From: Bacteroidota bacterium
Lineage (GTDB): Bacteria > Bacteroidota > Bacteroidia > Bacteroidales > F082
DNA length: 64,000 nt
Assembly (NCBI GenBank): GCA_018336075.1
Contig: JAGXRB010000261.1
Span: forward strand, 221 to 64,220
Direction of reading: 5' to 3'
Shown here: positions 26,058 to 63,833 of the stretch, one piece after another
How positions within the stretch are numbered: position 1 is the stretch's first letter
Layout: every line of letters starts with the position of its first letter
Translations under genes and position numbers: made by a program
The notes under the pieces: model-generated
What the model saw: the letters and a program-made list of their open reading frames with translations, nothing else
Databases searched by the model: none
What the model was told of the DNA's origin: nothing

Positions 26058-28154
26058 TTAGCCATTCATAGATATCAGAAACTCCTGATTTGTCAAGGTG
26101 TATCTCATTTTATCTTTAAGGAATTCCATGGCTTCAATCGGAGTCATGTCAGCAAGGTGATTTCTCAAAATCCAAACGCGCTGCATGGTTTCTTTGTCTA
26201 ACAATAAGTCTTCACGGCGTGTGCTGGAAGCAACGATATCTATAGCAGGCCAGATGCGTTTATTTGACAAGCGTCTGTCGAGCTGTAGTTCCATATTGCC
26301 AGTACCTTTAAATTCTTCAAAGATAACTTCGTCCATTTTTGAGCCTGTATCGATGAGTGCAGTTGCAATAATGGTTAGTGATCCACCATTTTCTATTTTG
26401 CGTGCTGCTCCAAAAAATCTTTTTGGTTTTTGAAGGGCATTTGCTTCCACACCACCCGAAAGTACTTTTCCAGAAGCTGGAGACACTGTGTTGTAAGCTC
26501 TTGCAAGACGTGTAATTGAGTCAAGTAAAATTACCACATCGTGTCCGCATTCGGTAAGACGTTTGGCTTTTTCAAGAACGATATTTGCAATTTTCACATG
26601 TTTGTCGGCAGGCTCATCAAAAGTTGATGATATAACTTCTGCTCTGACACTTCTTGCCATATCGGTCACCTCTTCAGGACGTTCATCTATAAGCAAAACT
26701 ATCAGGTAAACTTCCGGATGATTTTTCGCAATAGCGTTGGCAACTTCTTTTAAGAGAACTGTTTTACCAGTTTTTGGTTGTGCCACAATTAATCCACGCT
26801 GACCTTTGCCAATAGGAGCAAAAAGATCCATAATGCGCGTTGACATTGTGTTTTCAGCATGTCCCGTGATATTGAATTTTTCTTCAGGAAATAGTGGAGT
26901 CAGAAAGTCAAATGGAATACGGTCCCTTACTTCTTCAGGTAATCTGCCGTTAATTAAATCCACTTTTATCAAAGGAAAGTATTTTTCACCTTCTCTTGGT
27001 GGTCTGATGGTGCCTTTGATAGTATCACCGGTTTTGAGACCAAATAACTTTATCTGCGATTGAGATACATAAATATCGTCAGGTGAGTTCAAATAATTAT
27101 AGTCAGAAGACCTCAGGAAGCCATATCCATCGGGCATGATTTCCAAAACACCTTCTGCATTTACAATGCCATCGAATTCAAATGTGTATTCTTCTCTTTT
27201 TGATTTTTGAGCAAATTCTCTATGAGGTTGTTCCCGCCTCTGAGGCTGATGTTGAGGCTGGTCTGCTTGTTTTTCTATAACAGCTTCACCTTCAGACGGT
27301 TTTTGTGCGTCGGAATTAAATCTATCCTCATTTTGTTTTACATCTTCTTTCTGATGAGGATTTCTTGTATTTTGTGGGAGGTTACCTTTTTGTGGCTGTC
27401 CGGAATTTTTTTGAGAATCATTCTCTCTTACAGGCTGACTTTCTTTTGAGTCAGATTGATTTTCCCTTTGACCCTGATTAAAACTCTGTTTTGGTAAATC
27501 TCTTCTGTTTTGGTCTTTTCTTGTCTCATCCCTGCGTGGATCTTCTCTTCTAGTCTCATCCCTGCGCGGCTCTTCTCTTCTGACATCTTCTCTTTTGACT
27601 TCAACCCTGCGTGGATCTTCCCTTCTGATATCTTCTCTTTTAGCCTCATCTCTGCGTGGCTCTTCTCTTCTTGTTTCCTCTCTTCGTTGCTCGTTTCGTT
27701 GAGGAAAATTGCTTTTTGTTTCTCCCTGACGTATTTCAGTTTTGGGTTGTTTGTCTGAATTTAACGAAGAAATGCTTTCATCTTCCAAAAGGGTCAATTT
27801 TAATGTTACAGCCTCTTTTTCTTTTGGTTTTTCGATTTCACTTTCTTGCTTCTTTTGTACTGGCGGCACTTTTAGAGCTTCAGGAAGGGGTCTTTTTTCT
27901 TCATTCTTGTCGGCAGGATTGCCGGAACGTCTGTTTTCAGGAGTTTTTTTGATTCTGGCGCGCTTATTTTGTCTGGCAATTTCTTGTTCTGCTGCTGTCG
28001 CCTCTTCCGATTGAGGCAATAATGCCTGCTGGTCAAGAATCTGATAAATTAAATCCTGTTTTAGAAGTTTTTCCACCTTGGGAACGTTCAGTTCCTTTGC
28101 AATTTCCCTTAGCTCACTTACAAGCTTACTATTAAGCTCAACAATATCATACAT
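26058..28154 (-). CDS. rho: Transcription termination factor Rho with a large N-terminal insertion domain
   Basis: 698 aa. The N-terminus has a Rho_N helix bundle and the C-terminal ~370 aa are canonical (CSD-like RNA-binding domain, Walker A PKTGKT, RecA fold). About 275 aa of R/E/D/Q/K-rich low-complexity sequence sits between them. Confidence 0.95.
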
Positions 28155-37498: not shown

Positions 37499-39658
37499 CT
37501 AATGCTGAATTATTATCTTCTGGGTATTTTTGGTTTTATCGGATGAAATAGTCAGGAAATAAACGCCATTTGGCAAGTCAGCTGTAGAGATTCTGTATTC
37601 CTTCAATGATTCAGCATTAACAGTTCTTGTTAGCATTGGTAAATTTAGCCTGTTAAATAGTTGAACTGTATATGTTTCGTTAGCTTTTTCGTCAAATTTA
37701 ACAGTGAAATAATCATTGGCCGGATTTGGATAAATAGTGAAAGTAAGCGGAAGGTCGGTGATGGTGAAGTAGTTGCTACTTAAATCTTGAATTGTCCCGG
37801 ATACTGAACTAAATACTCTGATTTTGTATTTTGAACTAGTTGGATAGGTACTCAGTACATTCCAGACAGTAGTAGTTCCGACAACACCCGATTCTATAGT
37901 AAAAGTCTGTGTATGAACATTAAAGTCGTCGTATCTGTATAATTCGATATTTACTGGTTCAAGAACATTATCAATCCATGAAATAAGGTAAGGAATTCCT
38001 TTGTATAGTGTTTCGCCACCATTTGGTTGATGGATATCAATTGTGCCACCTTCGGTGTCAACAAGAGAGAAATGGTTTGCGCTAGAACCCACTATTGTAT
38101 TGTTGCTTCCCCAAACGTTTATCTTGTATTGTGTTCCAAGAGGGAAAGTTGTTTCGGGTATCGGCCAAACCCACGTTGAACCTTCAGCTCCAGTTTTAAT
38201 CATATGAAAAGTTGGAGTTGTAACACCGTAATTGGCTAATTCAATATTAAACGGACCCGGAATAGTTGGGTTCCATGATATTAGATGAGAAGTACCTCTA
38301 AGCCATTTGATATTAGCAACGCTTGGCTGAAGAACTTCAATAGAACCTCCTGCTGGAAAGTCAGCTAATGCGAAGTTGTGTGTACTTGAGCCTACAATTG
38401 TATTATTTGAACCCCATACATTTATCTTGTATTGTGTCCCAGTTGGGAAAGTGTTTTCTGGAATTGACCAAACCCATGTTGAACCTTCAGCTCCAGTTTT
38501 AATCATATTAAAAGTAGGAGTTGTAACACCATAATTGGCTAATTCGATATTAAATGGTCCAGGGATTGTCGGGTTCCAAGAAATAAGTTGAGATGTTCCT
38601 CTTAACCATGTAATTCCTTGTTCACTTGGTTGCATTACAGTAATGGTTCCACCTACCGGATAATCTGCAAGTGCAAAATAGTTTTGACTTGAACCGTGAA
38701 TAGTGTTGCCATTTCCCCAAACAATAATTTTATACTTACTTCCAGTTGGGAAAGTGTTTTCTGGAATCGACCATACCCATGTTGAACCTTCAGCTCCGGT
38801 TTTAATCATGTGATAAGTATGATTGTTAGGATTAGGATCATTCATATTAGCTAACTCAATATTAAAAGGACCAGGAACAGTTGGATTCCAAGAAATGAGA
38901 TAAGAAGATCCTCTTAACCATGATATATTTAATGCGCTTGGCTGCAGAACGTTAATTGAACCTCCAGGTGCATGAGCAGCAATAGTAAATTCGTTGACAC
39001 TTTGACTAACAAGCGAATTGTTAGCACCTCCCCAAACATTGATTTTATATTGACTGCCAACTTGTAGATCTGAAGGTATAGACCAAGCCCATGTAGAACC
39101 AGTTACATTGCTTGCCAGTGTTGTGAAAGTTGGAGTTGTAACACCATAATTTGCCAATTCAATAAGGAAAGGTCCGGAGACATTGTGTGTCCATGAAATT
39201 AAATTTGTTGTTCCTCTAACCCAGGTGATGTTAGGAAGACTGGGTTGCTCAACCTTAATAAAGGATTCTGCAGCATTTAGTTTAATTTTAAAAAAGTTAT
39301 TGCTGGCATCAAAAAGGGTAGTATTTACTGTACTCCAAATATTAATTTTGAAATTATTTCCTTCAGGCACAGTATTTGGAATTGTCCAACTATATGTTGA
39401 ACCCTGAACTGATGGGGCAATTGTTGTAAAAGTTGGAGTTGTAACACCGTAATTAGCTAATTCAATTAATACGGGTTGTGTAAGATTGTCAGTCCAGGAA
39501 ATCAAGTAAGTTTGTCCGATAATCCATTCTATTCCTGCCTCGCTCGGTTGAATCACTTGAATATAAGGTGTCGGATGCTGAGCAAGAACATTCATGTTGA
39601 TTGTAATAAGTATTACAGCAATGAATGAAATAATCTTAAGGTGTAATAAATGTTTCAT
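37499..39658 (-). CDS. T9SS-secreted surface protein with six Ig-like repeats plus Por CTD (paralog of 32713-35451)
   Basis: 719 aa with the same repeat module. The last ~180 aa are roughly two-thirds identical by eye to those of the 912-aa protein. Confidence 0.75.
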   Translation of the reverse strand: MKHLLHLKIISFIAVILITINMNVLAQHPTPYIQVIQPSEAGIEWIIGQTYLISWTDNLTQPVLIELANYGVTTPTFTTIAPSVQGSTYSWTIPNTVPEGNNFKINIWSTVNTTLFDASNNFFKIKLNAAESFIKVEQPSLPNITWVRGTTNLISWTHNVSGPFLIELANYGVTTPTFTTLASNVTGSTWAWSIPSDLQVGSQYKINVWGGANNSLVSQSVNEFTIAAHAPGGSINVLQPSALNISWLRGSSYLISWNPTVPGPFNIELANMNDPNPNNHTYHMIKTGAEGSTWVWSIPENTFPTGSKYKIIVWGNGNTIHGSSQNYFALADYPVGGTITVMQPSEQGITWLRGTSQLISWNPTIPGPFNIELANYGVTTPTFNMIKTGAEGSTWVWSIPENTFPTGTQYKINVWGSNNTIVGSSTHNFALADFPAGGSIEVLQPSVANIKWLRGTSHLISWNPTIPGPFNIELANYGVTTPTFHMIKTGAEGSTWVWPIPETTFPLGTQYKINVWGSNNTIVGSSANHFSLVDTEGGTIDIHQPNGGETLYKGIPYLISWIDNVLEPVNIELYRYDDFNVHTQTFTIESGVVGTTTVWNVLSTYPTSSKYKIRVFSSVSGTIQDLSSNYFTITDLPLTFTIYPNPANDYFTVKFDEKANETYTVQLFNRLNLPMLTRTVNAESLKEYRISTADLPNGVYFLTISSDKTKNTQKIIIQH

Positions 39659-55605: not shown

Positions 55606-55716
55606 ATTAAGTTAATATTAAGTTCAAATGTAGTTCATTTTAGAATTGCATGAAAATTCAATGAAAAGAATCGGTTATTGGTTGTTCAGAATATGAATAT
55701 ACATTTGAAAGTAATA

Positions 55717-55750
55717 TAAAAAAAACGCGCATTTCAATTTGAAATGCGCG
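55717..55750 (-). terminator. Stranded original terminator of tRNA-Arg (now separated from the tRNA by the island)
   Basis: A 12-bp palindrome CGCGCATTTCAA-t-TTGAAATGCGCG. On the minus strand it is followed by T8-9 and lies about 20 nt downstream of the attL tRNA-3'-end copy. Confidence 0.65.
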
Positions 55751-55768
55751 CATGTCTTGATTTTGAGA

Positions 55769-55782
55769 AGTGATCCGGACAG
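55769..55782. repeat. attL core: 14-bp direct repeat AGTGATCCGGACAG (displaced copy of the tRNA-Arg 3' end)
   Basis: Identical to 63758-63771. Confidence 0.85.
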
Positions 55783-55885
55783 TATCATAATAAATACACT
55801 TAACTTATTGATATACTGTTATTTTAGAAAAAAGTGGTATCACAAATGAACTTCGCAACATTTCTATAAATGACAGTATCACAAT
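55781..55885 (+). promoter_or_regulatory. Left-end cluster of putative integrase arm-type sites (GTATCA(C/T)AA)
   Basis: AGTATCATAA at 55781-55790, GGTATCACAAA at 55836-55846 and AGTATCACAAT at 55875-55885. All share one orientation with the right-end copies. Confidence 0.5.
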
Positions 55886-55902
55886 AGATTACACATAATT
55901 TC

Positions 55903-56397
55903 TTAAACTTTTGCAGTATCGCATAAATTGGCCTTATTCAAGGCATATTTAAGACTATTTGTCAAGTTTAAAATTGTTGCTGACTGCGATTTCAGTAATT
56001 CAATCAGTTCTTTTTCTCGTTCCGTCCAATTTTCATCTAGTTCCGATGAAAATACATTATTTGGAATGTCGGCTGAAATATGCAACCTCTTGTTCATTAG
56101 TGCATCAAATTGGTCAGGCATTTTATAGCCTTCCACGTCAATTTTATTCATTAGTTCATACTCCCTGATGTATGCCTGTATAACTTGTTCGGCTGCTGTC
56201 TCCTTCGTTTCGGCATAGAATTCATGAATTAATAAAGTTAATTCACAAAAGTGTGATCTGTTTTTTGAATCTGCAAGCATTTGCAATAATAGTGACATAG
56301 GTAACTTTACAAGTTCTTCCTTTGCTTTTTCAGGCTCCAGATTTAAATCCAGATTCCAGAATTGATCATACGCTTGATCTAATTTCGATTTTTCCAT
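55903..56397 (-). CDS. Hypothetical protein (island cargo, next to the array)
   Basis: 164-aa ORF, helical and acidic, with no family I recognise. A possible -7 box (plus strand CAAATGTA) lies at 56545-56552. Confidence 0.5.
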   Translation of the reverse strand: MEKSKLDQAYDQFWNLDLNLEPEKAKEELVKLPMSLLLQMLADSKNRSHFCELTLLIHEFYAETKETAAEQVIQAYIREYELMNKIDVEGYKMPDQFDALMNKRLHISADIPNNVFSSELDENWTEREKELIELLKSQSATILNLTNSLKYALNKANLCDTAKV

Positions 56398-56617
56398 GAT
56401 GTTTAGGTATTTGATAAAAGAAAATGCAGACCATCACCGCGTAACATTCTAGCAAGCATGAATGATGTAGTACTTTCAACTAATTGTGGTCTGCAAAGGT
56501 TTATCTTAACCATGCTTTTAGAAATATTAAAATGTTACGCACTGCAAATGTAAAAATATTCTTATTGCATTGTCAAGAAAAAAATGTGATACAAAAAAAG
56601 GTCTCCCTCTCGGAGGA

Positions 56618-57049
56618 GTTGTGCATGGCCTTAATTTTGGTGCAAGGCTCAACATGAAACTATAAAGGTTACGAGAGAATTTTGTTGTGCATGGCCTTAA
56701 TTTTGGTGCAAGGCTCAACAACCAGTCGAAATTTCGACCCGTTAACTTTGTTGTGCATGGCCTTAATTTTGGTGCAAGGCTCAACTAATTGGATGCTTCC
56801 TCGTGAGGAAGCAATGTTGTGCATGGCCTCAATTTTACTGTAAGGCTCAACACTGAGCCGAAATTTCGTCCCAGTAACATTGTTGTGCATGGTCTCAATT
56901 TTGCTGCAAGGCTCAATATATGTCCCTGAGTCGAGAATAAGGGAACTGTTGTGCATGGCCTCAATTTTGGTGCAAGGCTCAACATAAAGTCTCCCTCAAC
57001 TGAGGAGGACTTTGTTGTGCATGGCCTCAATATAGGTAAAGGAAATTTT
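56618..57049 (+). CRISPR. Cas-less CRISPR-like array: six good 36-bp repeats plus one half-degenerate repeat, with six 30-bp spacers
   Basis: Repeats of consensus GTTGTGCATGGCCTTAATTTTGGTGCAAGGCTCAAC start at 56618, 56684, 56750, 56816, 56882, 56948 and 57014, an exact 66-bp period. R1 to R3 are identical, R6 has 1 change, and R4 and R5 have 4 each. R7 matches only the first ~18 nt. Further decayed copies lie near 57060 and 57150. I infer the orientation from decay at the high-coordinate end. Confidence 0.65.
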
Positions 57050-57182
57050 TCCTAGACCTGTTTTACATGGCCATAATTCAAAGTCAATATGAGAAATCTA
57101 GCTCGAGTAAATGAATTGTAAATTTTGTGATGTGTAGCATCATTTCATTTAGAAAGGCTCTTACATGGCTTTATTTTAAGGC

Positions 57183-57214
57183 AAAAAAAAATCCGCTGAA
57201 ATTAATCAGCGGAT
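57183..57214 (-). terminator. Rho-independent terminator of the capsid operon
   Basis: ATCCGCTGA-aatta-TCAGCGGAT stem, followed on the minus strand by T8-9. It lies about 70 nt after the capsid stop. Confidence 0.75.
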
Positions 57215-57283
57215 CTTCTCACTTACCAAACGAGAAACTATAATTATCCCTAATTATAAAAAATGAAACAATGAAAAATCTCT

Positions 57284-58678
57284 TTATGCTGTATCTGGTT
57301 TCATGCCAGTAATTTTGGCGAAGTGACCCGGTTTCATCAATCCAATATCACCACGCCAAATGACGCGGATATATGTCTGATTCCGTTCAAATGCTTCACC
57401 TGATACACTGGATGCTTCCAATGTAACTGATTGACGTAAACCGATAACCACCTGTGAAAAATCCCCGATAATTCCGGAGCTTTCATTTTCTCCAACTCCC
57501 TGATTGGTCGGGAATGCTGTTGAATGTGTAAAGTTTACATCTTTCAAAAGTTCTGGCTTTGGAACAAATCCAAGATCGGTTGCCTGTGTCTGCAAAATAG
57601 CGAAATCACGCGGACTTAATGCCAGTAAATTTGCTGTTCCGCTGTTGTTGGCTACCTTTGTCCATGCAGAAACAACAGGTCTGTATGTGATGTAATCTGT
57701 TGAAAAATCTGTCATGGAGACTGATTCAACGCCCACCTGATTCATTATTCCTTTGGGCTCTGTTGTGCCTTGTCCCCAGATTGACAATCTGTCAAGCTCT
57801 GCGGCCAATGCTGCTGAAATCGCTGTATCAATCGCATTGGCTGCGTTTGGCGAATCTTGCAAAAGTTCATTGGAAATTTTAAGTAAACCACCAATTGTAA
57901 ACGAATTGAGCTCAACTCCATCAAATGTCATTCCATTATCACTGAACGCATCATTTTCGGCTTTTATCTCAATTGTTGGGTCTGTTGCAACTCTCGCTAG
58001 TGTGAGCTCTTTACCTTCCATGATAACCAATTGTGCACCACCACCAAATACAACTGATTTCGCACGACTTTTGTCAATCACTTGCGGAAACAATCTAACT
58101 GGAACCAATGTCCCGGTGCTAGTGGTGCTTAGTGCGGCTCTGGTCTCTGGTTCCACGCCTGCCCAATCTCCGGTAACAATACCGCGAATGATTTTCCCAA
58201 GTGTGCCGGAATTCGTTTTTTTATGTAAATCGCTGAAGTTATGCGAACGTTCCAAAACTTGTACAGGTTTTCCGGTTCTCCGGTCAATCCATTGTGATTC
58301 AGTTTCTGGATTTTTACCACCATATTGAGCTATAAAACTTTTTCCGGCCATTTCTAGTGCTCGTCTTTCGTCTTCTTCTAGCTCTTTAACTTTTATTGTC
58401 AGGTGATCGAATTCAGATTTCAGTCTGTCATATTCGACTGTTTCAGAATCTGTAAAATTACGTTTTTCTGCTTTTCGCTTTTGAATTAACAGATCCATTC
58501 TATCCCATGTTTGCGCCCTCAATTGCTTTGCTTCGTCTGAAGTTTCAATGTTAGCAATTATAGCGGGCACAATCAGTGCAAGTGATGTCAATGCTGAACC
58601 TTCAGCAAAAAAAGCGGCTGCCATTACTACCAAAAGTAGTGTTGCAAGTCCTAAAATGATTCTAAATGAAGTTTTCAT
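57284..58678 (-). CDS. Phage major capsid protein, HK97 family, with an N-terminal hydrophobic segment and a coiled-coil (scaffold-like) region
   Basis: ..KISNELLQDS.., ..AAELDRLSIWGQGTTEPKGI.. and the N-terminal ..NFTDSETVEYDRLKSEFDHLTIKVKELEE.. are hallmark HK97-MCP patterns. The track ORF starts at 58804 but overlaps the upstream gene, so I prefer the ATG at 58678 (MKTSFRII..). Confidence 0.85.
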   Translation of the reverse strand: MKTSFRIILGLATLLLVVMAAAFFAEGSALTSLALIVPAIIANIETSDEAKQLRAQTWDRMDLLIQKRKAEKRNFTDSETVEYDRLKSEFDHLTIKVKELEEDERRALEMAGKSFIAQYGGKNPETESQWIDRRTGKPVQVLERSHNFSDLHKKTNSGTLGKIIRGIVTGDWAGVEPETRAALSTTSTGTLVPVRLFPQVIDKSRAKSVVFGGGAQLVIMEGKELTLARVATDPTIEIKAENDAFSDNGMTFDGVELNSFTIGGLLKISNELLQDSPNAANAIDTAISAALAAELDRLSIWGQGTTEPKGIMNQVGVESVSMTDFSTDYITYRPVVSAWTKVANNSGTANLLALSPRDFAILQTQATDLGFVPKPELLKDVNFTHSTAFPTNQGVGENESSGIIGDFSQVVIGLRQSVTLEASSVSGEAFERNQTYIRVIWRGDIGLMKPGHFAKITGMKPDTA

Positions 58679-58697
58679 TTTCTTAGATTTAATTGAT

Positions 58698-59117
58698 TTA
58701 AAACTGGTTAACATATATTTGACGGAATAAATCTCCGGGAATGCGCACAATGTTTTTGATATTTTCAGTGTTGGGTTCCCCTGCGAAGACTGTTGTGTCT
58801 TCAAAAAATAGTCTGACTGAATCGAAAGTTATATCAACCCACAATAATTTGCGGATGTCGGTTTCTGGATTGCCGTCCGGCCTGTGACTTCTCAAATGTT
58901 GGGTGAGTGTGTCAAGAATCTCAATTGTTTCAAATCGCAACCCCTTTTTCATTTCGCTTTCACTACCGATGGGAGCGATGGCCGAGAAATACAATAAAGC
59001 TGCTGTATTGTAAGCACTGCTTTTTGATTTTGCAATCAGATCAATTTTTGATAGGAACGCCTGAACCTGATCAACACTTTCAAAGTGATTTTTCAGTAGG
59101 ATGATATTTTTTTCCAT
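58698..59117 (-). CDS. Hypothetical protein (first gene of the capsid operon)
   Basis: ORF 58698-59135. The -7 box overlaps the first codons, so I prefer the start MEKNIILL at 59117. No recognisable family. Confidence 0.5.
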   Translation of the reverse strand: MEKNIILLKNHFESVDQVQAFLSKIDLIAKSKSSAYNTAALLYFSAIAPIGSESEMKKGLRFETIEILDTLTQHLRSHRPDGNPETDIRKLLWVDITFDSVRLFFEDTTVFAGEPNTENIKNIVRIPGDLFRQIYVNQF

Positions 59118-59132
59118 GACTTCAATTTTTGG

Positions 59133-59140
59133 CAAAGCTA
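59133..59140 (-). promoter_or_regulatory. -7 box TAGCTTTG for the 145-aa/capsid operon
   Basis: The plus strand reads CAAAGCTA. Confidence 0.4.
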
Positions 59141-59180
59141 TGTCAGGAAAAAAAAAGTAGGTATAACAATGTTATACTTT

Positions 59181-59609
59181 TTAGGCTAAATTTTTTAATT
59201 CATAACTGTGTCGACTATTCCAACTGATATAATCAGTGTATTTACTTTTTTTGAAATGCAATCTATAAATGCTATCCAGATAGTAGAATGCATCAACTTT
59301 TTTCATTCCTTTTTCACGGAGCAAATTGATATAAGTTCCCCAGTTCAATGAGCTTTCATTTAATGAAATTAAAATATCCGGGACATATGTTTCTCCGGCT
59401 TCTTTTAAATTTTGTAGTTCTGATAAAACTTCCTCTTCTGCTTCTGATAAATTACTCAAAATTGCATATGCGTACACATGGCTAGGCGAACGCTTAGTGC
59501 TGGAAAGGTTGTCAGGATTGACCCTCCCCCCCCTTATTGGGCTCTTTTTAGCTTTTAATGTGCTGTCTTTCAATTTCTTAGGTGCTTTTGTTTGTATGTT
59601 TGTTTCCAT
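59181..59609 (-). CDS. Hypothetical basic protein containing a G8 homopolymer tract
   Basis: 142-aa ORF with a K/R-rich N-terminus. A C8 run on the plus strand at 59526-59533 lies in codons for ..IRGGRV... Confidence 0.5.
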   Translation of the reverse strand: METNIQTKAPKKLKDSTLKAKKSPIRGGRVNPDNLSSTKRSPSHVYAYAILSNLSEAEEEVLSELQNLKEAGETYVPDILISLNESSLNWGTYINLLREKGMKKVDAFYYLDSIYRLHFKKSKYTDYISWNSRHSYELKNLA

Positions 59610-59668
59610 TGTCTTGTTAATAGGTTGATTTATAATAATTTGGCAATTTTTTATTCTATGAACTAATG

Positions 59669-60622
59669 TTATGATAGGTTATGAACTTCAAGTAAATTCG
59701 ATAAAACTGATTCTATTTTGGAGCTTTTAAGATACTCGTCTTCTGAATGAGTTAAATATAGTTTAGTGATGTTCGGGCTGGTATGCCGGAGAAACAACTG
59801 GACTTTAAAAATGTCATTTGTGGCTTTCAGTGCTGCGATTGCTGCGCCATGTCTTAAGCTGTGCGCACTTATTTTTGGATGCTTCAATCCTGCTGACTTC
59901 AATCTGTTGTTAACTATGTTCCCAATCTCTGGTGCTGACAATGCTTTTGCTTCTCCGTCCCTTATCCAATGACTTCTAAACAATGGCTCCGATGGGTTCA
60001 ATGTTTCATCTTTGCCAATTGTTAAACGCCTGGTCTCAATCAATTCTTTCAACGCCTGGTCAATGCTATCGGATATGGTGACGGCCTCCTTCACTTGCTG
60101 ACCTTTGCCGAGTATGTAAAGTAATGGCCGGCCTGACCTGTCAGTCTGAAAATCTGAAATCCTTAACCTTGAAACTTCAATGGCTCGTAATCCATTTTCA
60201 AACATCAATTGAATAATAACTTTATCTCTGGTTCCGGCAAATGTACTTCCATCAATTGACCTGATTAGCTGTGATACTTCTTCTGGTTTCAATGGGAGTT
60301 TGCTATATTGCTTTGGAATTTTGACGGGCCGGATGCCTGCTGTGATGTTTTTATAAATGTCATTCGCTTCCGTCCATTTGTAAAATCCTTTCACTCCCGA
60401 CAAATAACTATTGGCGGTGTAAATGCTTTTTTTGCTGATAAGAAATTCTTTAAATCTAATGATGTCGCGTTCGTTCGGAGTGCTGGCTGGCCGTCCAACA
60501 ATCACCAGATATTTGAAAAATTGGTGTAATGCATTCTCAATTGCCTTGCGGCTTTTGTCGTTAATGTCCTTTTGATCTGTGAAATCAGAAATTAACTGTG
60601 TGATCGTTCGGGCTGAATTCAT
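59669..60622 (-). CDS. Tyrosine recombinase, XerC/XerD-like (phage integrase family)
   Basis: 317 aa with an N-terminal SAM-like domain. The catalytic region reads ..GLRAIEVSRL.. (Arg I), ..HSLRHGAAIA.. (H-x-x-R) and ..LRHTSPNITKLYL (His/Tyr). Confidence 0.85.
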   Translation of the reverse strand: MNSARTITQLISDFTDQKDINDKSRKAIENALHQFFKYLVIVGRPASTPNERDIIRFKEFLISKKSIYTANSYLSGVKGFYKWTEANDIYKNITAGIRPVKIPKQYSKLPLKPEEVSQLIRSIDGSTFAGTRDKVIIQLMFENGLRAIEVSRLRISDFQTDRSGRPLLYILGKGQQVKEAVTISDSIDQALKELIETRRLTIGKDETLNPSEPLFRSHWIRDGEAKALSAPEIGNIVNNRLKSAGLKHPKISAHSLRHGAAIAALKATNDIFKVQLFLRHTSPNITKLYLTHSEDEYLKSSKIESVLSNLLEVHNLS

Positions 60623-61185
60623 TGTGTTAATGCTTTGGTGTTATCATAAGAAGTTGTCAAAAGTTTTATGTTCGTATCTGGATAGTATTTTTCTGAATTC
60701 AATTTCTTGAATTTTTCTTCAAAATCGATTTTGGAAAAATAAATATCAGAACGATTACAATATCTTTCCAAATAATCAAATACTTCATCAAGTGGATTTA
60801 CTAAACCTGCAAATTTTCTGTGCGTTTTTTTTCTTTCAAATGGTTTTACCATGTCATTAAACCATTTAAGATTGATCTGTTGTCCATAAAGTTTTTCATC
60901 AAAATTATGTTGGCCATTTATTACTTTCAGTAATGCCTTCTCATAATTATCAACTGTGATATGTCCAATTGTTTTTTTCAGGTTTGATAAGAAAAAACTT
61001 CTTGCTGGAAAATCTTTTGTGTCGGTCGGAATGTTTGATGCTCCCCAGCCCATTAAAATTGCTGTTTTTGAAATCATTTTTGCAAAATCTCCGTTTGAAA
61101 TTTCGGCAATTGTGGTCGGAAAAATTATTTTTCCCGGAATGCTTTTAATAGGCCACTCAATGTAAGGTTTAATTTCTTGTTCCAT
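60619..61185 (-). CDS. Hypothetical protein
   Basis: 188-aa ORF that overlaps the recombinase gene by 4 bp (translational coupling). No recognisable family. Confidence 0.5.
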   Translation of the reverse strand: MEQEIKPYIEWPIKSIPGKIIFPTTIAEISNGDFAKMISKTAILMGWGASNIPTDTKDFPARSFFLSNLKKTIGHITVDNYEKALLKVINGQHNFDEKLYGQQINLKWFNDMVKPFERKKTHRKFAGLVNPLDEVFDYLERYCNRSDIYFSKIDFEEKFKKLNSEKYYPDTNIKLLTTSYDNTKALTQ

Positions 61186-61196
61186 ATTGAAAGAAT

Positions 61197-61913
61197 TTAA
61201 AATGATTTTGAAAATTCTTCTTGCGCTTTATGATTAGCTTCCTGTTTCGATTTTGCCGCGATGTATGAATTTTTTGGAGTAGTAAGGCTTTTAGTATAGT
61301 TTTCGATTTTATTTTTATCTGTAAACCATATTTTTCTCATTTTAAGTTTCCAGTTTTTAACTGGATTATCTTTACTATCAATCCAATTACGATCGTTATA
61401 CCAATCATAAGCGATTTTTGCAGCTTCTTCATGATATCCATTATCAAGAAAAAATTTAATAACTTCAGAAAATTGCGGAGCTACTAGAATAGAATTATTA
61501 TTACTTGTATCATTCAAAATACTTGTACTATTATCCTCGAAGTTTTTTTCTATACCCCCCCCGAAATTTTTTTCTATACCCCCCTCGAAGTTTTTTTCTA
61601 TACCCCTCCCGAAGTTTTTTTCTATACCCCCCTCAGTTAAATAGATATTTCTTCTTGCGATTACCTTGCTGTTGTTCTGATATTCATTTTCTGTTTCGAT
61701 GTAACCATACTTCACTAATTGAGCTATCCAGTTAGTGATGCTTCGCTCGCTTACGTTGTAAAGTTTTGCGAAATACTTATTTGATGCAAAACACCTTTTT
61801 TCTTTATTTGATAGTGCTGTGATCTCTCCGTAAAAAAGTTTGACGTTCGGAGTTAAATTTTCATCATAGCGAACTTTTGCCGGGATGATGGCATAATAAT
61901 TTGGACTTTCCAT
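61197..61913 (-). CDS. HTH-domain replication-organiser-like protein (DnaD/phage Rep N-terminal type) with an internal GGIEKNF x4 repeat
   Basis: The N-terminus YYAIIPAKVRYDENLTPNVKLFYGEITALSNKEKRCFASNKYFAKLYNVSERSITNWIAQLVKYGYI resembles winged-HTH phage/plasmid replication proteins. The functional assignment is inferential. Confidence 0.55.
   Translation of the reverse strand: MESPNYYAIIPAKVRYDENLTPNVKLFYGEITALSNKEKRCFASNKYFAKLYNVSERSITNWIAQLVKYGYIETENEYQNNSKVIARRNIYLTEGGIEKNFGRGIEKNFEGGIEKNFGGGIEKNFEDNSTSILNDTSNNNSILVAPQFSEVIKFFLDNGYHEEAAKIAYDWYNDRNWIDSKDNPVKNWKLKMRKIWFTDKNKIENYTKSLTTPKNSYIAAKSKQEANHKAQEEFSKSF
61537..61632. repeat. Four tandem 24-bp direct repeats (candidate iterons/origin) inside the rep-like gene
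   Basis: The four 24-bp units are 61537-61560, 61561-61584, 61585-61608 and 61609-61632. Consensus (T/C)CGAAGTTTTTTTCTATACCCCCC, with 1 to 2 changes per unit. Confidence 0.8.
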
Positions 61914-61980
61914 ATCTTTGATTTTTGATTTTTGAATTATACCCGATGCATGACTAAATGCACCGGGTTTTTTATTCTCC

Positions 61981-62160
61981 TTAAAGCAAGTTCATCTTTT
62001 CTGCTTTCTTTTTCCAGAAACGTTCTCTGATTGCTTTTACCTTTTCAGGATTTTTTTCACGCCATTCTTTATTGTACGCACGTTGTACTTTTTTTACCAA
62101 CGCATCAATGGTTTCAGCGTCCATCTCTTTTTTCTTCTTGAATTTCTTAAAAATGTCCAT
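61981..62160 (-). CDS. Small basic hypothetical protein (59 aa; below the ORF-track cutoff)
   Basis: My translation reads MDIFKKFKKKKEMDAETIDALVKKVQRAYNKEWREKNPEKVKAIRERFWKKKAEKMNLL. It sits at the head of the rep operon. Whether it is coding is uncertain. Confidence 0.35.
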   Translation of the reverse strand: MDIFKKFKKKKEMDAETIDALVKKVQRAYNKEWREKNPEKVKAIRERFWKKKAEKMNLL

Positions 62161-62347
62161 CTTATTAGGTTTTTTGGGTTAATAAATCAATGTAAGAGTA
62201 AACAATCGTTTTTGTTTTGTCAAGGTGACAATGTCCGGAATCGTATACATTTATTTTGTTCTAACTCAATACTGATAAGGCTTTCAGCGTTGTTGAAAAG
62301 TGTTGATAACTTTTGTTTTGTCCCCTCGAAAATGGCAATTTTGGAGC

Positions 62348-62385
62348 AAAAAAAAATCCCATTGGGACGCCAATGGGATTTTTTA
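62348..62385 (-). terminator. Rho-independent terminator after the integrase gene
   Basis: AATCCCATTGG-gacg-CCAATGGGATT stem, with a T-run on the minus strand (A9 on the plus strand). Confidence 0.75.
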
Positions 62386-62409
62386 AACTTAGTTAAATTC
62401 TGAGTGAGC

Positions 62410-63558
62410 TCAGATTTTTGTAATACCCAATCGGTCGTAATCGTTGCTTATTTTTGAAGATAACATTTGAGCATATATCCGGGTCGTTTTTACACTGGCA
62501 TGGCCTAGTGTATGACTTACCGTCTCCAATGGCAATCCAGCGTTTAGCATTTGAGTTGCGAATGTGTGCCTTGCAAGGTGCGTTGTCAATGTTTTTGGGA
62601 TGTCGCAAATGATTTCAAGCTCCTTTAGAAAGGCATTCATTTTTTGATTAGAAATTATGTTAAAGACCTTTGAATTGTTGTCCCTGTACTTTTCAATAAT
62701 TTGCAGTGCTTCTTCCAGAAGTGGAACCATTGTTTTTTCTTGCGTTTTTTCTCGTGATCTTATAATGAAAGGTCTGCCGTCAATATTTCTTATTTCATCT
62801 CTTTTCAAGTTTAACAAATCACCGAAAGCCAATCCGCTGTTAATTTGAAATATGAACATGTCGCGGACTTGCTCCAGTCTTTGAATTCCTTTGTAATCTC
62901 GTAAACGTTGGATTTCATCAACTGTTAGAAAATCAATGTTACTTTTTGCTTTTGGTAGCTTAAAATTGTCATAAGGTGTTTTTTTAATCATATCAGTATT
63001 AACAGCCCTGCGCAAATATTTTATAAGTACCTTATGATTTTTCAGCGTTGTACTTGCTTTCATTGTCTTTAATAAATGAGAATGAAATCGATGTAAGTAG
63101 TTAAGGTTGAAATCTTGAATTTTTACATGCTTGTCGAATGCTTCAAAATTATTCAAAACAGAGTTAACAGCTCTTATCTGTCCGGCTCCTAGCGTTGGTT
63201 TATCAATCTCAAATTGCTGTCTCATATATTCGGCCAATGATGTGTTACGGCCTAGCTGGTCTCCGTCCATAAATAATTTTAAACTTTCCGGAGACGGTGT
63301 TATCTGGTAGCGGAAACAATCCAGATTGAATTCTTCAATTTTTCGGAGCTCTGCTTCAATCATAAAATTGTATTGAATAGCTCTGTTGTGTTGACGTGTA
63401 ACGCGTTTTTTCTTATCGTCCCAGTGCTCTTTTTCTATTTTAAATGGGAGGTTTCTCCATATCCTGGTATTACGATCAAAATAGATTTCAATACTAACCG
63501 GAGCAGATTTTCCGCTGATTGCTGTTTTTTTTCTGTCATAAATTACTTTACTTTCCAT
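62410..63558 (-). CDS. int: Site-specific tyrosine integrase (Bacteroidota type with an N-terminal arm-binding domain)
   Basis: The C-terminus reads ..HLARHTFATQMLNAGLPLETVSHTLGHASVKTTRIYA (H-x-x-R ... H ... Y). The track ORF starts at 63591. I prefer MESKVIYDRKK at 63558 because a -7 box lies at 63579-63586. Confidence 0.9.
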   Translation of the reverse strand: MESKVIYDRKKTAISGKSAPVSIEIYFDRNTRIWRNLPFKIEKEHWDDKKKRVTRQHNRAIQYNFMIEAELRKIEEFNLDCFRYQITPSPESLKLFMDGDQLGRNTSLAEYMRQQFEIDKPTLGAGQIRAVNSVLNNFEAFDKHVKIQDFNLNYLHRFHSHLLKTMKASTTLKNHKVLIKYLRRAVNTDMIKKTPYDNFKLPKAKSNIDFLTVDEIQRLRDYKGIQRLEQVRDMFIFQINSGLAFGDLLNLKRDEIRNIDGRPFIIRSREKTQEKTMVPLLEEALQIIEKYRDNNSKVFNIISNQKMNAFLKELEIICDIPKTLTTHLARHTFATQMLNAGLPLETVSHTLGHASVKTTRIYAQMLSSKISNDYDRLGITKI

Positions 63559-63571
63559 GCTTTTATTGTTT

Positions 63572-63625
63572 GGTATCACAAAACTAGTCAAAATTAAAGA
63601 AAAGTATCACAAAAAGTATCACAAA
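63572..63625 (+). promoter_or_regulatory. Right-end cluster of putative arm-type sites (GTATCACAAA x3) overlapping the integrase promoter
   Basis: GGTATCACAAA at 63572-63582, AGTATCACAAA at 63603-63613 and AGTATCACAAA at 63615-63625. A -7 box (plus strand CAAAACTA, i.e. TAGTTTTG) lies at 63579-63586. Confidence 0.5.
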
Positions 63626-63729
63626 TTTTACAAATTGGTTTGTTTTTTTTCAGGTTACACCATAATGTAAAATAACACTAGAAGTGGTGTTTTGTAGTAC
63701 GGGCGCGGGTTTCAGTAAATTTTAGGCAT

Positions 63730-63753
63730 AAAAAAACCCCTCGTGTGAGGGGT
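63730..63753 (-). terminator. Island-borne terminator now serving tRNA-Arg
   Basis: ACCCCTC-gtgt-GAGGGGT stem, followed on the minus strand by T7. It begins about 7 nt after the tRNA 3' end and lies inside the element. Confidence 0.65.
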
Positions 63754-63757
63754 TGTC

Positions 63758-63771
63758 AGTGATCCGGACAG
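63758..63771. repeat. attR core: 14-bp direct repeat AGTGATCCGGACAG overlapping the tRNA-Arg 3' end
   Basis: Identical to 55769-55782. Confidence 0.85.
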
Positions 63772-63833
63772 GATTCGAACCTGTGGCCCGCAGCTTAGAA
63801 GGCTGCTGCTCTATCCAACTGAGCTACCGGACC
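63760..63833 (-). tRNA. tRNA-Arg (anticodon UCU)
   Basis: I folded the 74-nt cloverleaf by hand. Acceptor GGTCCGG/CCGGATC, D arm GCTC..GAGC, anticodon arm GCAGC-CTTCTAA-GCTGC, T arm ACAGG-TTCGAAT-CCTGT, discriminator A. CCA is not encoded. Confidence 0.92.

Follow-up and report, generated by a model that had tools for sequence, protein, structure and literature searches.

A cas-less array carried by a mobile element and aimed at relatives of that element is a known kind of CRISPR locus. The closest described examples are the mini-arrays of the archaeal portogloboviruses SPV1 and SPV2 of Sulfolobales, which lack cas genes and whose spacers are directed at sibling viruses (Medvedeva et al. 2019, PMC6858448). 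The targets of these spacers lie near the mini-arrays, for reasons left unexplained, and the orthologous loci of the carrier are mutated or deleted (PMC6858448). Here we describe an array of six spacers (S1-S6; positions 56618-57049, plus strand) in a 64,000-nt stretch of a Bacteroidota genome (contig JAGXRB010000261.1 of assembly GCA_018336075.1; hereafter, the window). We give about an even chance to the reading that this is a cas-less array in the style of subtype VI-B, borne by a satellite-like element integrated in a tRNA-Arg gene, and that its spacers come from terminator-like, hypervariable stem-loops in sibling elements. Similarly to the portoglobovirus mini-arrays, the array is intergenic, sits in a small mobile genome without cas genes (here enclosed by the cores of its attachment, or att, sites) and shows spacer turnover between near-identical genomes. 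Its spacers likewise relate to siblings, with related sequences near the array and a differing locus in the carrier itself (here spacer S6 versus S0, the hairpin at the leader end of the array). By contrast, the host is a member of Bacteroidota and the carrier an integrative, satellite-like element with a capsid gene only, not a virus; there are six spacers between VI-B-style, RNA-targeting repeats instead of one or two spacers; sibling matches reach 63-67% and not 100%; and the related sequences are self-complementary, covarying hairpins.

The array comprises six full 36-nt repeats, R1-R6, starting at 56618, 56684, 56750, 56816, 56882 and 56948, and a truncated seventh, R7', starting at 57014. 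They alternate with spacers of exactly 30 nt at an exact 66-nt period, and the consensus repeat is GTTGTGCATGGCCTTAATTTTGGTGCAAGGCTCAAC. The leader is on the left side of the array and the degenerate end on the right. R1, R2 and R3 are identical, R4 and R5 match the consensus at 32 of 36 positions each, R6 at 35 and R7' at 23. This rightward decay is continued by two relics on the same strand, at 57060-57095 (20/36; at least 20 is reached at 0.016% of background positions) and 57158-57193 (19/36; background 0.08%). A decayed repeat inside the leader was considered as well and rejected, its identity, judged by eye, not exceeding chance.

Arrays of subtype VI-B, served by Cas13b, have 36-nt repeats with complementary GUUG/CAAC ends and a U-rich open loop, and 30-nt spacers (Smargon et al., bioRxiv 10.1101/092577). 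The present repeat is predicted by RNAfold to pair GUUG with CAAC around a U-rich open loop (GTTG...AATTTTGG...CAAC, with UUAAUUUU unpaired), so that the array agrees with VI-B in repeat length (six full copies at 66-nt spacing), repeat ends, loop and spacer length, and also in having no adjacent cas1 or cas2. The distal composite of degenerate repeats is reminiscent of the long repeat described for VI-B arrays. In contrast, cas13b, which together with csx27 or csx28 adjoins a VI-B array, is not found within the 64 kb, the neighbours being a capsid gene and an open reading frame (ORF) of 164 residues; the location on a mobile element and the hairpin spacers are further differences. More generally, no ORF scanned across the window, including all those flanking the array, matched cas or known defence families, and neither an anti-repeat nor cas9 was seen in it. 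We infer subtype VI-B from repeat and spacer features; the assignment goes no further because the type II-C repeats of Flavobacterium columnare are likewise 36 bp long and start with GTTGT (PMC8092290), and the repeat alone is also compatible with membership in type II-C. In F. columnare, the VI-B array gains spacers in trans via the type II-C Cas1 (Hoikkala et al. 2021, PMC8092290). Our locus resembles that case as a Bacteroidota array without adaptation genes of its own, in the change at its leader end, in its 36-bp repeats starting with GTTGT and in that many acquired spacers are not necessarily complementary to mRNA; a bias towards hairpins is not reported there.

Two side observations concern the repeat-spacer unit. 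All six spacers end in T and five of the six start with A, so the unit could be read as a 38-nt repeat with 28-nt spacers, or the end bases could reflect an acquisition motif or ruler. R1-R3 carry TAATTTTG (56632-56639, 56698-56705 and 56764-56771), which fits the Bacteroidota -7 promoter consensus TAnnTTTG, and the older repeats carry CAATTTTG. Judged by eye, the box has no correctly spaced upstream TTG, for which reason repeat-internal promoters were discarded, and TAATTTTG probably represents no more than the repeat's U-rich loop.

The array has changed very recently, because a contig from a different assembly (L001; ENA ERZ27300255) is 100% identical to the window over 18 kb (left and right parts of 10,751 and 7,215 nt, both free of mismatches) and yet lacks 132 bp beside the leader, exactly R-S1-R-S2. 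This block is the sole difference between the two, and contigs of a third data set (Logan SRR6212587) have their break points exactly in R1 and R3. Gain or loss alike, this is the behaviour of a live array. A first-pass annotation of the window, whose coordinates and sequences we reproduced, had read the region as a CRISPR array, and this reading stands: the 36 + 30 periodicity, the VI-B-like repeats, the polarised change at the leader end and the gradient of repeat decay towards the opposite end identify a genuine, recently changing CRISPR array. What sets it apart from CRISPR arrays in general is that its spacers are not mutually unrelated segments with foreign protospacers: S2 and S4 agree at 22 of 30 positions, and no protospacers were found.

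Each spacer was folded with RNAfold and compared with 200 dinucleotide shuffles and, separately, with about 9,000 natural 30-mers of matched G+C content from the same window, which provided empirical p values. Two spacers are extreme by both measures. S3 (56786-56815, plus strand; -11.2 kcal/mol, z = -3.67, p = 0.0022) has perfect 9-bp arms around a 2-nt centre, arms of at least 8 bp being attained by only 0.24% of background 30-mers. S6 (56984-57013, plus strand; -12.8 kcal/mol, z = -3.23, p = 0.0016) pairs 11 of 12 positions between AAA and TTT flanks. S2 (56720-56749, plus strand; -6.2 kcal/mol, z = -2.94, p = 0.058) contains the perfect 14-bp palindrome GTCGAAATTTCGAC, its 7-bp arms being attained by 1.1% of background 30-mers, and S4 (56852-56881, plus strand; -5.5 kcal/mol) has z = -2.98 and p = 0.12. 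S5 (56918-56947, plus strand) forms a weak 5-bp stem with a 12-nt loop and does not fold significantly (z = -0.97, p = 0.076), and the leader-proximal S1 (56654-56683, plus strand) is not a hairpin (z = +0.39). Fisher combination of the spacer p values gives 4.7e-5, or 5.9e-5 without S4, and the spacer hairpins stay separate stems when the whole array transcript is folded. Hairpins are therefore four of the six spacers, two of them strongly so, with S1 and S5 ordinary. The first-pass annotation had described the inter-repeat segments as self-complementary hairpins, with a bulged stem in S5 and only a weak one in S1, which is correct for S2, S3, S4 and S6 (z of -2.9 to -3.7, beyond the shuffled controls), whereas S1 and S5 are unremarkable; the inverted repeat it saw in S3 and the 11 of 12 pairs in S6 were both recovered.

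S2 and S4 are homologous. They match in register at 22 of 30 positions, all remaining spacer pairs reaching 5-12, and recomputation retrieved both of the compensatory changes that had been pointed out by hand: A2-T23 and C3-G22 in S2 correspond to C2-G23 and T3-A22 in S4. The likeness of S6 to the sequence just upstream of R1 was also confirmed, with a local alignment score of 12, attained by 1% of 300 random control sets (p = 0.01). Such internal relatedness might be thought to reflect tandem duplication of spacer-repeat units followed by divergence, or a repeat that is not of CRISPR nature, such as a set of sites for the second tyrosine recombinase that the element encodes. Besides the homology of S2 and S4, Tandem Repeats Finder detects a period of 132 bp (80% matches), the repeat has the form of an imperfect palindrome about an A/T centre, and a repeat in one sibling element (L013) is inverted relative to the window. 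However, S3 and S5, the would-be partners in a simple duplication of a 132-bp unit, agree at only 7 of 30 positions, so that the 132-bp period stems from the repeats and from S2/S4 only; we rejected this simple form of growth, which had been among the options offered earlier. Nor is S2 a recent in-situ copy of S4 that drifted by eight substitutions, because the block containing it is the sole difference from an otherwise identical contig; if that block was gained, the eight differences are not drift after duplication. Since the exact 36 + 30 periodicity, VI-B end motifs, decay gradient and leader-end variation are hallmarks of CRISPR, we hold duplication or a non-CRISPR repeat to be highly improbable.

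At least two hairpin families can be defined. Family A includes S2 and S4, and family B includes S6 and S0, the hairpin at 56599-56617 that abuts R1 (the 30 nt upstream of R1 taken as a whole have z = 0.04 against dinucleotide shuffles). Relatives of family A were found in sibling elements. L013, with a capsid protein 48-50% identical to that of the window, has a 30-mer that matches S2 in register at 20 of 30 positions and directly adjoins a repeat, itself matching the first 30 nt of the window repeat at 22 of 30 (manual count); across the spacer-repeat junction, 17 nt agree exactly (TGCACAACAAAGTTAAC on the strand displayed). In L007, the 30-mer at 3739-3768 matches S4 at 20 of 30 positions, with a local alignment score of 15, which no random control set out of 300 attained. 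In an in-register alignment, S2, S4 and the two copies share one hairpin, in which 90.6% of cells pair and five of the eight pairs are double-changed. When the 3' partners are slid by 1-3 columns, pairing falls to 25-50% with zero or one double-changed pair. A covariance model built from the four sequences independently found the S0 hairpin of L012 (25.3 bits, E = 9e-5), which sits at the leader junction, and, in L007, one further hairpin (E = 0.01); elsewhere in 111 kb no match exceeded 17.6 bits.

The hairpin next to the leader is also where close siblings differ most locally. Between the window and L012, S0 is 63% identical with four indel positions, which makes it the most divergent local segment, the flanks being 91-100% identical. 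S6 differs from the S0 of its own element by substitutions and indels; that is, the carrier's own orthologous locus is altered. Outside the array, the window's own element has no family-A hairpin. A genome-wide origin from repetitive extragenic palindromic (REP)-like sequences was discarded, the core palindrome not being enriched elsewhere in the window.

The array at this site seems, from comparison of the available loci, ancestral to the element family and differentially retained, because L012 keeps a truncated repeat, and L007 and L009 keep a block composed of R7' and its trailer together with a hairpin-rich relic. In L012 there is apparently S0 alone, followed by the truncated R7'-like repeat, with no full repeat. 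L007 and L009 match the R7'-plus-trailer block (37 nt) with 81% identity (E ~1e-5). L006, whose capsid is 53% identical, has the same gene order and att site and no array, its capsid terminator lying directly before the conserved promoter. As side observations, L007 (3583-3905) and L009 (3119-3239) have an extra 74-residue ORF after the capsid gene. The stretch behind it is rich in hairpins: ATCCATTTTTGGAT occurs twice, some 170 nt apart, accompanied by a perfect palindrome of 20 nt (TCAGCCGAATATTCGGCTGA) and by the R7'-plus-trailer block. This stretch may be a decayed array or a composite structure resembling the long repeat. In L013, the repeat and S2-like 30-mer (1691-1750, corresponding to window positions 56720-56785) are inverted relative to the capsid gene, and an R7'-like block 88 nt from the inverted unit keeps the orientation of the window. 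Inversion of the array module by the second, XerC/D-like recombinase of the element family is conceivable.

Under the reading that we favour, the hairpin spacers would be no chance pieces of invader DNA; S2, S4 and S6 would be 30-nt versions of two stem-loop families that lie beside the array or its relic, most clearly at the leader-repeat junction (S0). The source hairpins would evolve fast in sequence, their pairing being kept by selection, presumably as terminators or insulators ahead of the downstream promoter. Spacers copied from different sibling alleles would then be self-complementary, interrelated and different by compensatory changes, because their sources change in sequence while keeping the pairing. 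The element would borrow the adaptation and effector proteins of the host and target siblings that compete for the same att site and helper. Hairpins would serve as spacer sources because they are among the few segments that differ between near-identical siblings, and taking spacers only from such segments would avoid self-targeting. We infer the direction of transcription, the supply of Cas13b by a host that also provides adaptation in trans, the targeting of siblings and the selection between self and non-self. One option in the first-pass annotation, capture from a single family of palindromic targets belonging to a rival element, comes closest to this scenario and fits best, with two amendments. 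There are at least two families, S3 having no relative; and family A and B relatives do adjoin the array site in sibling elements, although a near-exact donor was not found.

Several observations weigh against this scenario. The sibling copies are only 63-67% identical to the spacers, a near-exact protospacer is lacking, and so the actual donor is not among the siblings sampled. S3 has no sibling match and S1 and S5 have no significant one. All family-A copies in siblings lie within array or relic regions, adjoining repeats or repeat-like hairpins with U-rich loops, and may be present or past spacers in their own right, in which case they would not reveal the true source. The copies are on the gene-sense strand, which is the presumed sense of the CRISPR RNA; the S2 and S4 guides are consequently not complementary to sibling mRNAs except in their palindromic part. 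Cas13b reportedly disfavours structured targets, and hairpin guides and targets are therefore expected to work poorly. The VI-B report describes RNA secondary-structure requirements for Cas13b targeting (bioRxiv 10.1101/092577). Within the 64-kb window no cas13b, cas9 or cas1 is visible, and no Bacteroidota-type promoter is evident by eye on the array strand, the site scan covering sigma-70-like promoters only. Finally, the comparison comprises four sibling loci that cover the array region, and two of them, L007 and L013, were found by spacer similarity, which biases identity and not the compensatory changes.

Searches for protospacers were negative. Neither the six spacers nor the whole array had a BLAST match among INPHARED phages (50,697 phage records) or PLSDB plasmids, with E thresholds as lax as 1 to 10. 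In IMG/VR, exact patterns of the S2/S4 consensus, of S3, of S6 and of the conserved trailer block were not found, and the window contains no self-target at 11 or fewer mismatches. A degenerate repeat pattern was likewise absent from species-representative genomes and IMG/VR; a looser pattern had one match in JGI metagenomes, a chance match inside an unrelated coding region. These results bear on a third-party source, namely ordinary acquisition from a helper phage or other shared enemy whose terminators or packaging-site palindromes were hit repeatedly, with siblings facing diverged versions. S2 and S4 do look like two in-register acquisitions from variants of one site, S6 has the textbook shape of a bidirectional terminator, and the searched public collections do not hold even the element family, so that the enemy may be unsampled. 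Yet there was not one match in the phage records or IMG/VR, the S0 hairpins of L012 and of the window belong to the same families despite lying at the leader junction and not between repeats, and the restriction of hits to hairpins would be left unexplained. We consider such a source quite improbable.

The spacer pattern could also be a by-product of capture. If the adaptation integrase works by nicking at leader-repeat junctions, or uses DNA ends or fold-back DNA as its substrate, it might preferentially excise and insert the last 30 nt of a sibling leader, a hairpin by chance, with no selection for targeting. Consistent with this, S2 and the L013 junction sequence stand in the same register to the repeat, across the 17-nt identical junction, S6 resembles the carrier's own leader end, the S0 of L012 falls in family A, and the shared first and last spacer bases suggest end rules; targets of the archaeal mini-arrays, too, lie near arrays for reasons that are unexplained. 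In the literature searched, however, such a capture route is not documented. Moreover, S6 and S0 are out of register and align only with indels, the L007 copy does not adjoin a canonical repeat, and S1, S3 and S5 have no leader-like source. Overall, capture without targeting appears improbable.

The intergenic region around the array contains further structured signals. Read on the minus strand, the strand of the neighbouring genes, S0 is a hairpin followed by seven T residues, and a terminator scan places a site at 56618-56603. S0 and S6 are both listed as terminator-like on this gene-sense strand, each a G+C-containing stem-loop with a T-run after it, the scan giving five sites in the region versus 1.0 expected. 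Next comes a promoter-like site on the minus strand (56547-56576; TTGACA-18-TACATT), upstream of a structured 5' leader RNA and of the gene for the 164-residue protein. Its TTGAC...TACATTTG arrangement recurs in L006, L007 and L012, and in L012 the promoter region is 91% identical to that of the window. S0 thus has the look, on the gene-sense strand, of a terminator or insulator ahead of a conserved promoter. The 5' leader RNA (56398-56545, minus strand) is antisense to the CRISPR leader. It is identical in L012 at all 148 nt (the gene that follows has 85% nucleotide identity there), and has counterparts at L012 70-256, L006 7215-7405 and L007 3795-3976; over the four elements, RNAalifold predicts 29 pairs, seven with compensatory changes. 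Rfam produced only sub-threshold chance matches over the array region and this RNA, with no family assigned, and the RNA could be a regulatory leader or small RNA of the element family. On the other side of the array, a trailer hairpin (AGGTAAAGGAAATTTTTCCTAGACCT; 57034-57059, plus strand) overlaps R7' in its 3' half, remains when the whole transcript is folded and shares the family-A architecture of outer stem, 2x2 internal loop, inner stem and A/T-rich loop. Beyond it, a hairpin resembling an intrinsic terminator (ATCCGCTGA / TCAGCGGAT followed by nine T residues; 57182-57214, minus strand) follows the capsid gene; it was read from the sequence and is absent from the terminator scan list.

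The hairpin-plus-repeat units could be functional RNA modules, an option that the first-pass annotation had also offered: either inert self-folded guides that titrate host Cas13b as decoys, or terminators or insulators that separate the downstream promoter from the capsid operon. Selection would in that case act on the array to keep the pairing. In four elements with capsids 46-53% identical, family-A hairpins are confined to positions next to repeats or repeat-like hairpins, their pairing is conserved with covariation in five of eight pairs, a trailer hairpin of the same architecture is conserved in L007 and L009, and the hairpins persist in the whole-transcript fold, S0 and S6 being terminator-like. 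The sibling copies have the same sense as the spacers and hence are not complementary to them, and self-folded guides are expected to be poor at targeting, structure requirements being part of what is reported for Cas13b and their direction being reportedly unfavourable to structure. On the other hand, neither S1 nor S5 is a hairpin, stem and repeat are a variable 0 to 6 nt apart, and the leader-end polymorphism and decay of old repeats resemble ordinary spacer turnover. A purely structural module would have no need for the eight differences in 30 positions that separate S2 from S4 within one array, and the close sibling L012 seemingly manages with one hairpin and no full repeat. We therefore regard RNA modules as unlikely, albeit as a serious alternative. 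RNA anti-CRISPRs are reportedly phage-borne solitary repeats or mini-arrays that sequester Cas proteins. Our locus would resemble them in having cas-less repeat units on a mobile element that could load host Cas proteins unproductively; it differs in being a full, polarised array of six units with turnover and decayed relics.

More broadly, the hairpins might be integral to the array family, the spacers either stemming from the terminal 30 nt of sibling leaders by junction nicking or being self-folded hairpin-repeat RNAs that load host Cas13b. We find this rather doubtful. If true, this would be, under either version, the first satellite-borne array of VI-B type whose spacers follow a non-canonical logic: nicking at leader-repeat junctions would constitute a way of making spacers from array to array that has not been described before, and the decoy version would amount to an RNA decoy still evolving through CRISPR adaptation.

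The carrier is an 8.0-kb element (55769-63774) integrated in the tRNA-Arg gene. The distal att core (ATACTGTCCGGATCACT on the minus strand; 55769-55785) matches the 3' end of tRNA-Arg(tct) (63759-63833, minus strand) at 16 of 17 positions, this 3' end (63758-63774) being the 17-nt proximal core; these are the only two matches in the window, with one mismatch between them and zero expected by chance. All genes between the cores are on the minus strand, and the array is on the plus strand. The gene order from the tRNA is integrase, small ORF, replication initiator, 188-residue ORF, XerC/D-like recombinase, two small ORFs and capsid, followed by the array, the 5' leader RNA and the 164-residue ORF. 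The integrase (62410-63591, minus strand) has an Arm-DNA-binding domain and the replication initiator (61197-61913, minus strand) an HTH_36 domain; within the gene of the latter, four tandem 24-bp units (CGAAGTTTTTTTCTATACCCCCCC; 61538-61632) are probably iterons of the origin of the element. The second tyrosine recombinase, which is XerC/D-like, is at 59669-60622 (minus strand). The only recognisable virion gene encodes an HK97-fold major capsid protein (57284-58678, minus strand; 464 residues as called in public assemblies), matching PF05065 (E = 5e-24), TIGR01554 (E = 4.6e-33) and PHROG 10, and 43-53% identical to sibling capsids. In the longer ORF (57284-58804), the family-consensus N-terminal ~25 residues are hydrophobic (MKT.RILFGLF.LL..ALAASFF) and are followed by a coiled-coil-like segment before the HK97 domain; this unusual N-terminus could represent a scaffold (delta) domain or result from a mis-called start.

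The last gene of the element encodes the 164-residue protein (55903-56397, minus strand) and is kept in siblings with or without an array, homologues having 79% (L012), 36-37% (L006) and 29-30% (L015) amino acid identity. It has no match in Pfam, NCBIfam, PHROG or PADLOC, and its AlphaFold model is all-helical and of low confidence (predicted local distance difference test score 57.6, too low for a fold search). Further homologues of this protein and of the capsid sit at contig ends, without the array region. Distant capsid homologues in L016 and L017 belong to phage-like contigs with tail or portal genes and are not siblings. The capsid profile found no relatives in species-representative genomes and two distant contigs in IMG/VR, of which the one checked (L010) has no tandem array. 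We call the element satellite-like because of its predicted integrase, replication initiator with iterons, second recombinase and HK97 capsid; together with the att sites, it appears to combine its own replication module with a partial set of virion genes. Phage-inducible chromosomal islands (PICIs), including capsid-forming ones, are phage satellites, and the element resembles them in its size of ~8 kb, integration in a tRNA gene, integrase, replication initiator with iterons and partial virion genes. It differs in that markers of known satellite families were not detected and that its own family is absent from species-representative genomes and IMG/VR.

Some features elsewhere in the window are mentioned for completeness. 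Genes flanking the element encode type IX secretion system (T9SS)-sorting domains, which, along with the names in public sources, assign the sequence to a Bacteroidota metagenome-assembled genome. In-frame tandem repeats occur in a Rho termination factor gene (26058-28154), with 30- and 45-bp units at 27514-27692, and in the gene of a T9SS-sorted Kre9/KNH-domain protein (37499-39658), where a 303-bp unit is repeated 2.6 times at 38142-38922, also in frame. A sub-threshold Rfam match to the trpB motif (55715-55822; 32.9 bits versus a gathering score of 59) spans the distal att core copy and a strong host terminator at 55725-55751, and is most likely chance, driven by the terminator hairpin.

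In the literature searched we found nothing relevant on palindromic or self-complementary spacers or on satellite-borne or orphan Cas13b arrays, and carriage of CRISPR arrays by satellites was not found in the satellite literature searched. The combination of a bacterial, capsid-encoding, satellite-like carrier with VI-B-style repeats and covarying hairpin spacers related to stem-loops that flank the arrays of siblings was likewise not found there. If the reading favoured here is true, structured and fast-evolving targets can pass on their secondary structure and compensatory substitutions to spacers, and covariation within a CRISPR array is then not in itself evidence for functional spacer RNAs. 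Where protospacers are missing, the hairpins flanking the arrays of sibling elements are worth inspecting. With an 8-kb element and six spacers, the locus is a small and tractable system for studying whether hairpin guides function with Cas13b. If sibling hairpins are indeed the source, an RNA-targeting, VI-B-style array would depend wholly on host proteins, and CRISPR conflict between sibling elements would reach beyond archaeal viruses and some plasmids and phages to bacterial satellite-like elements.

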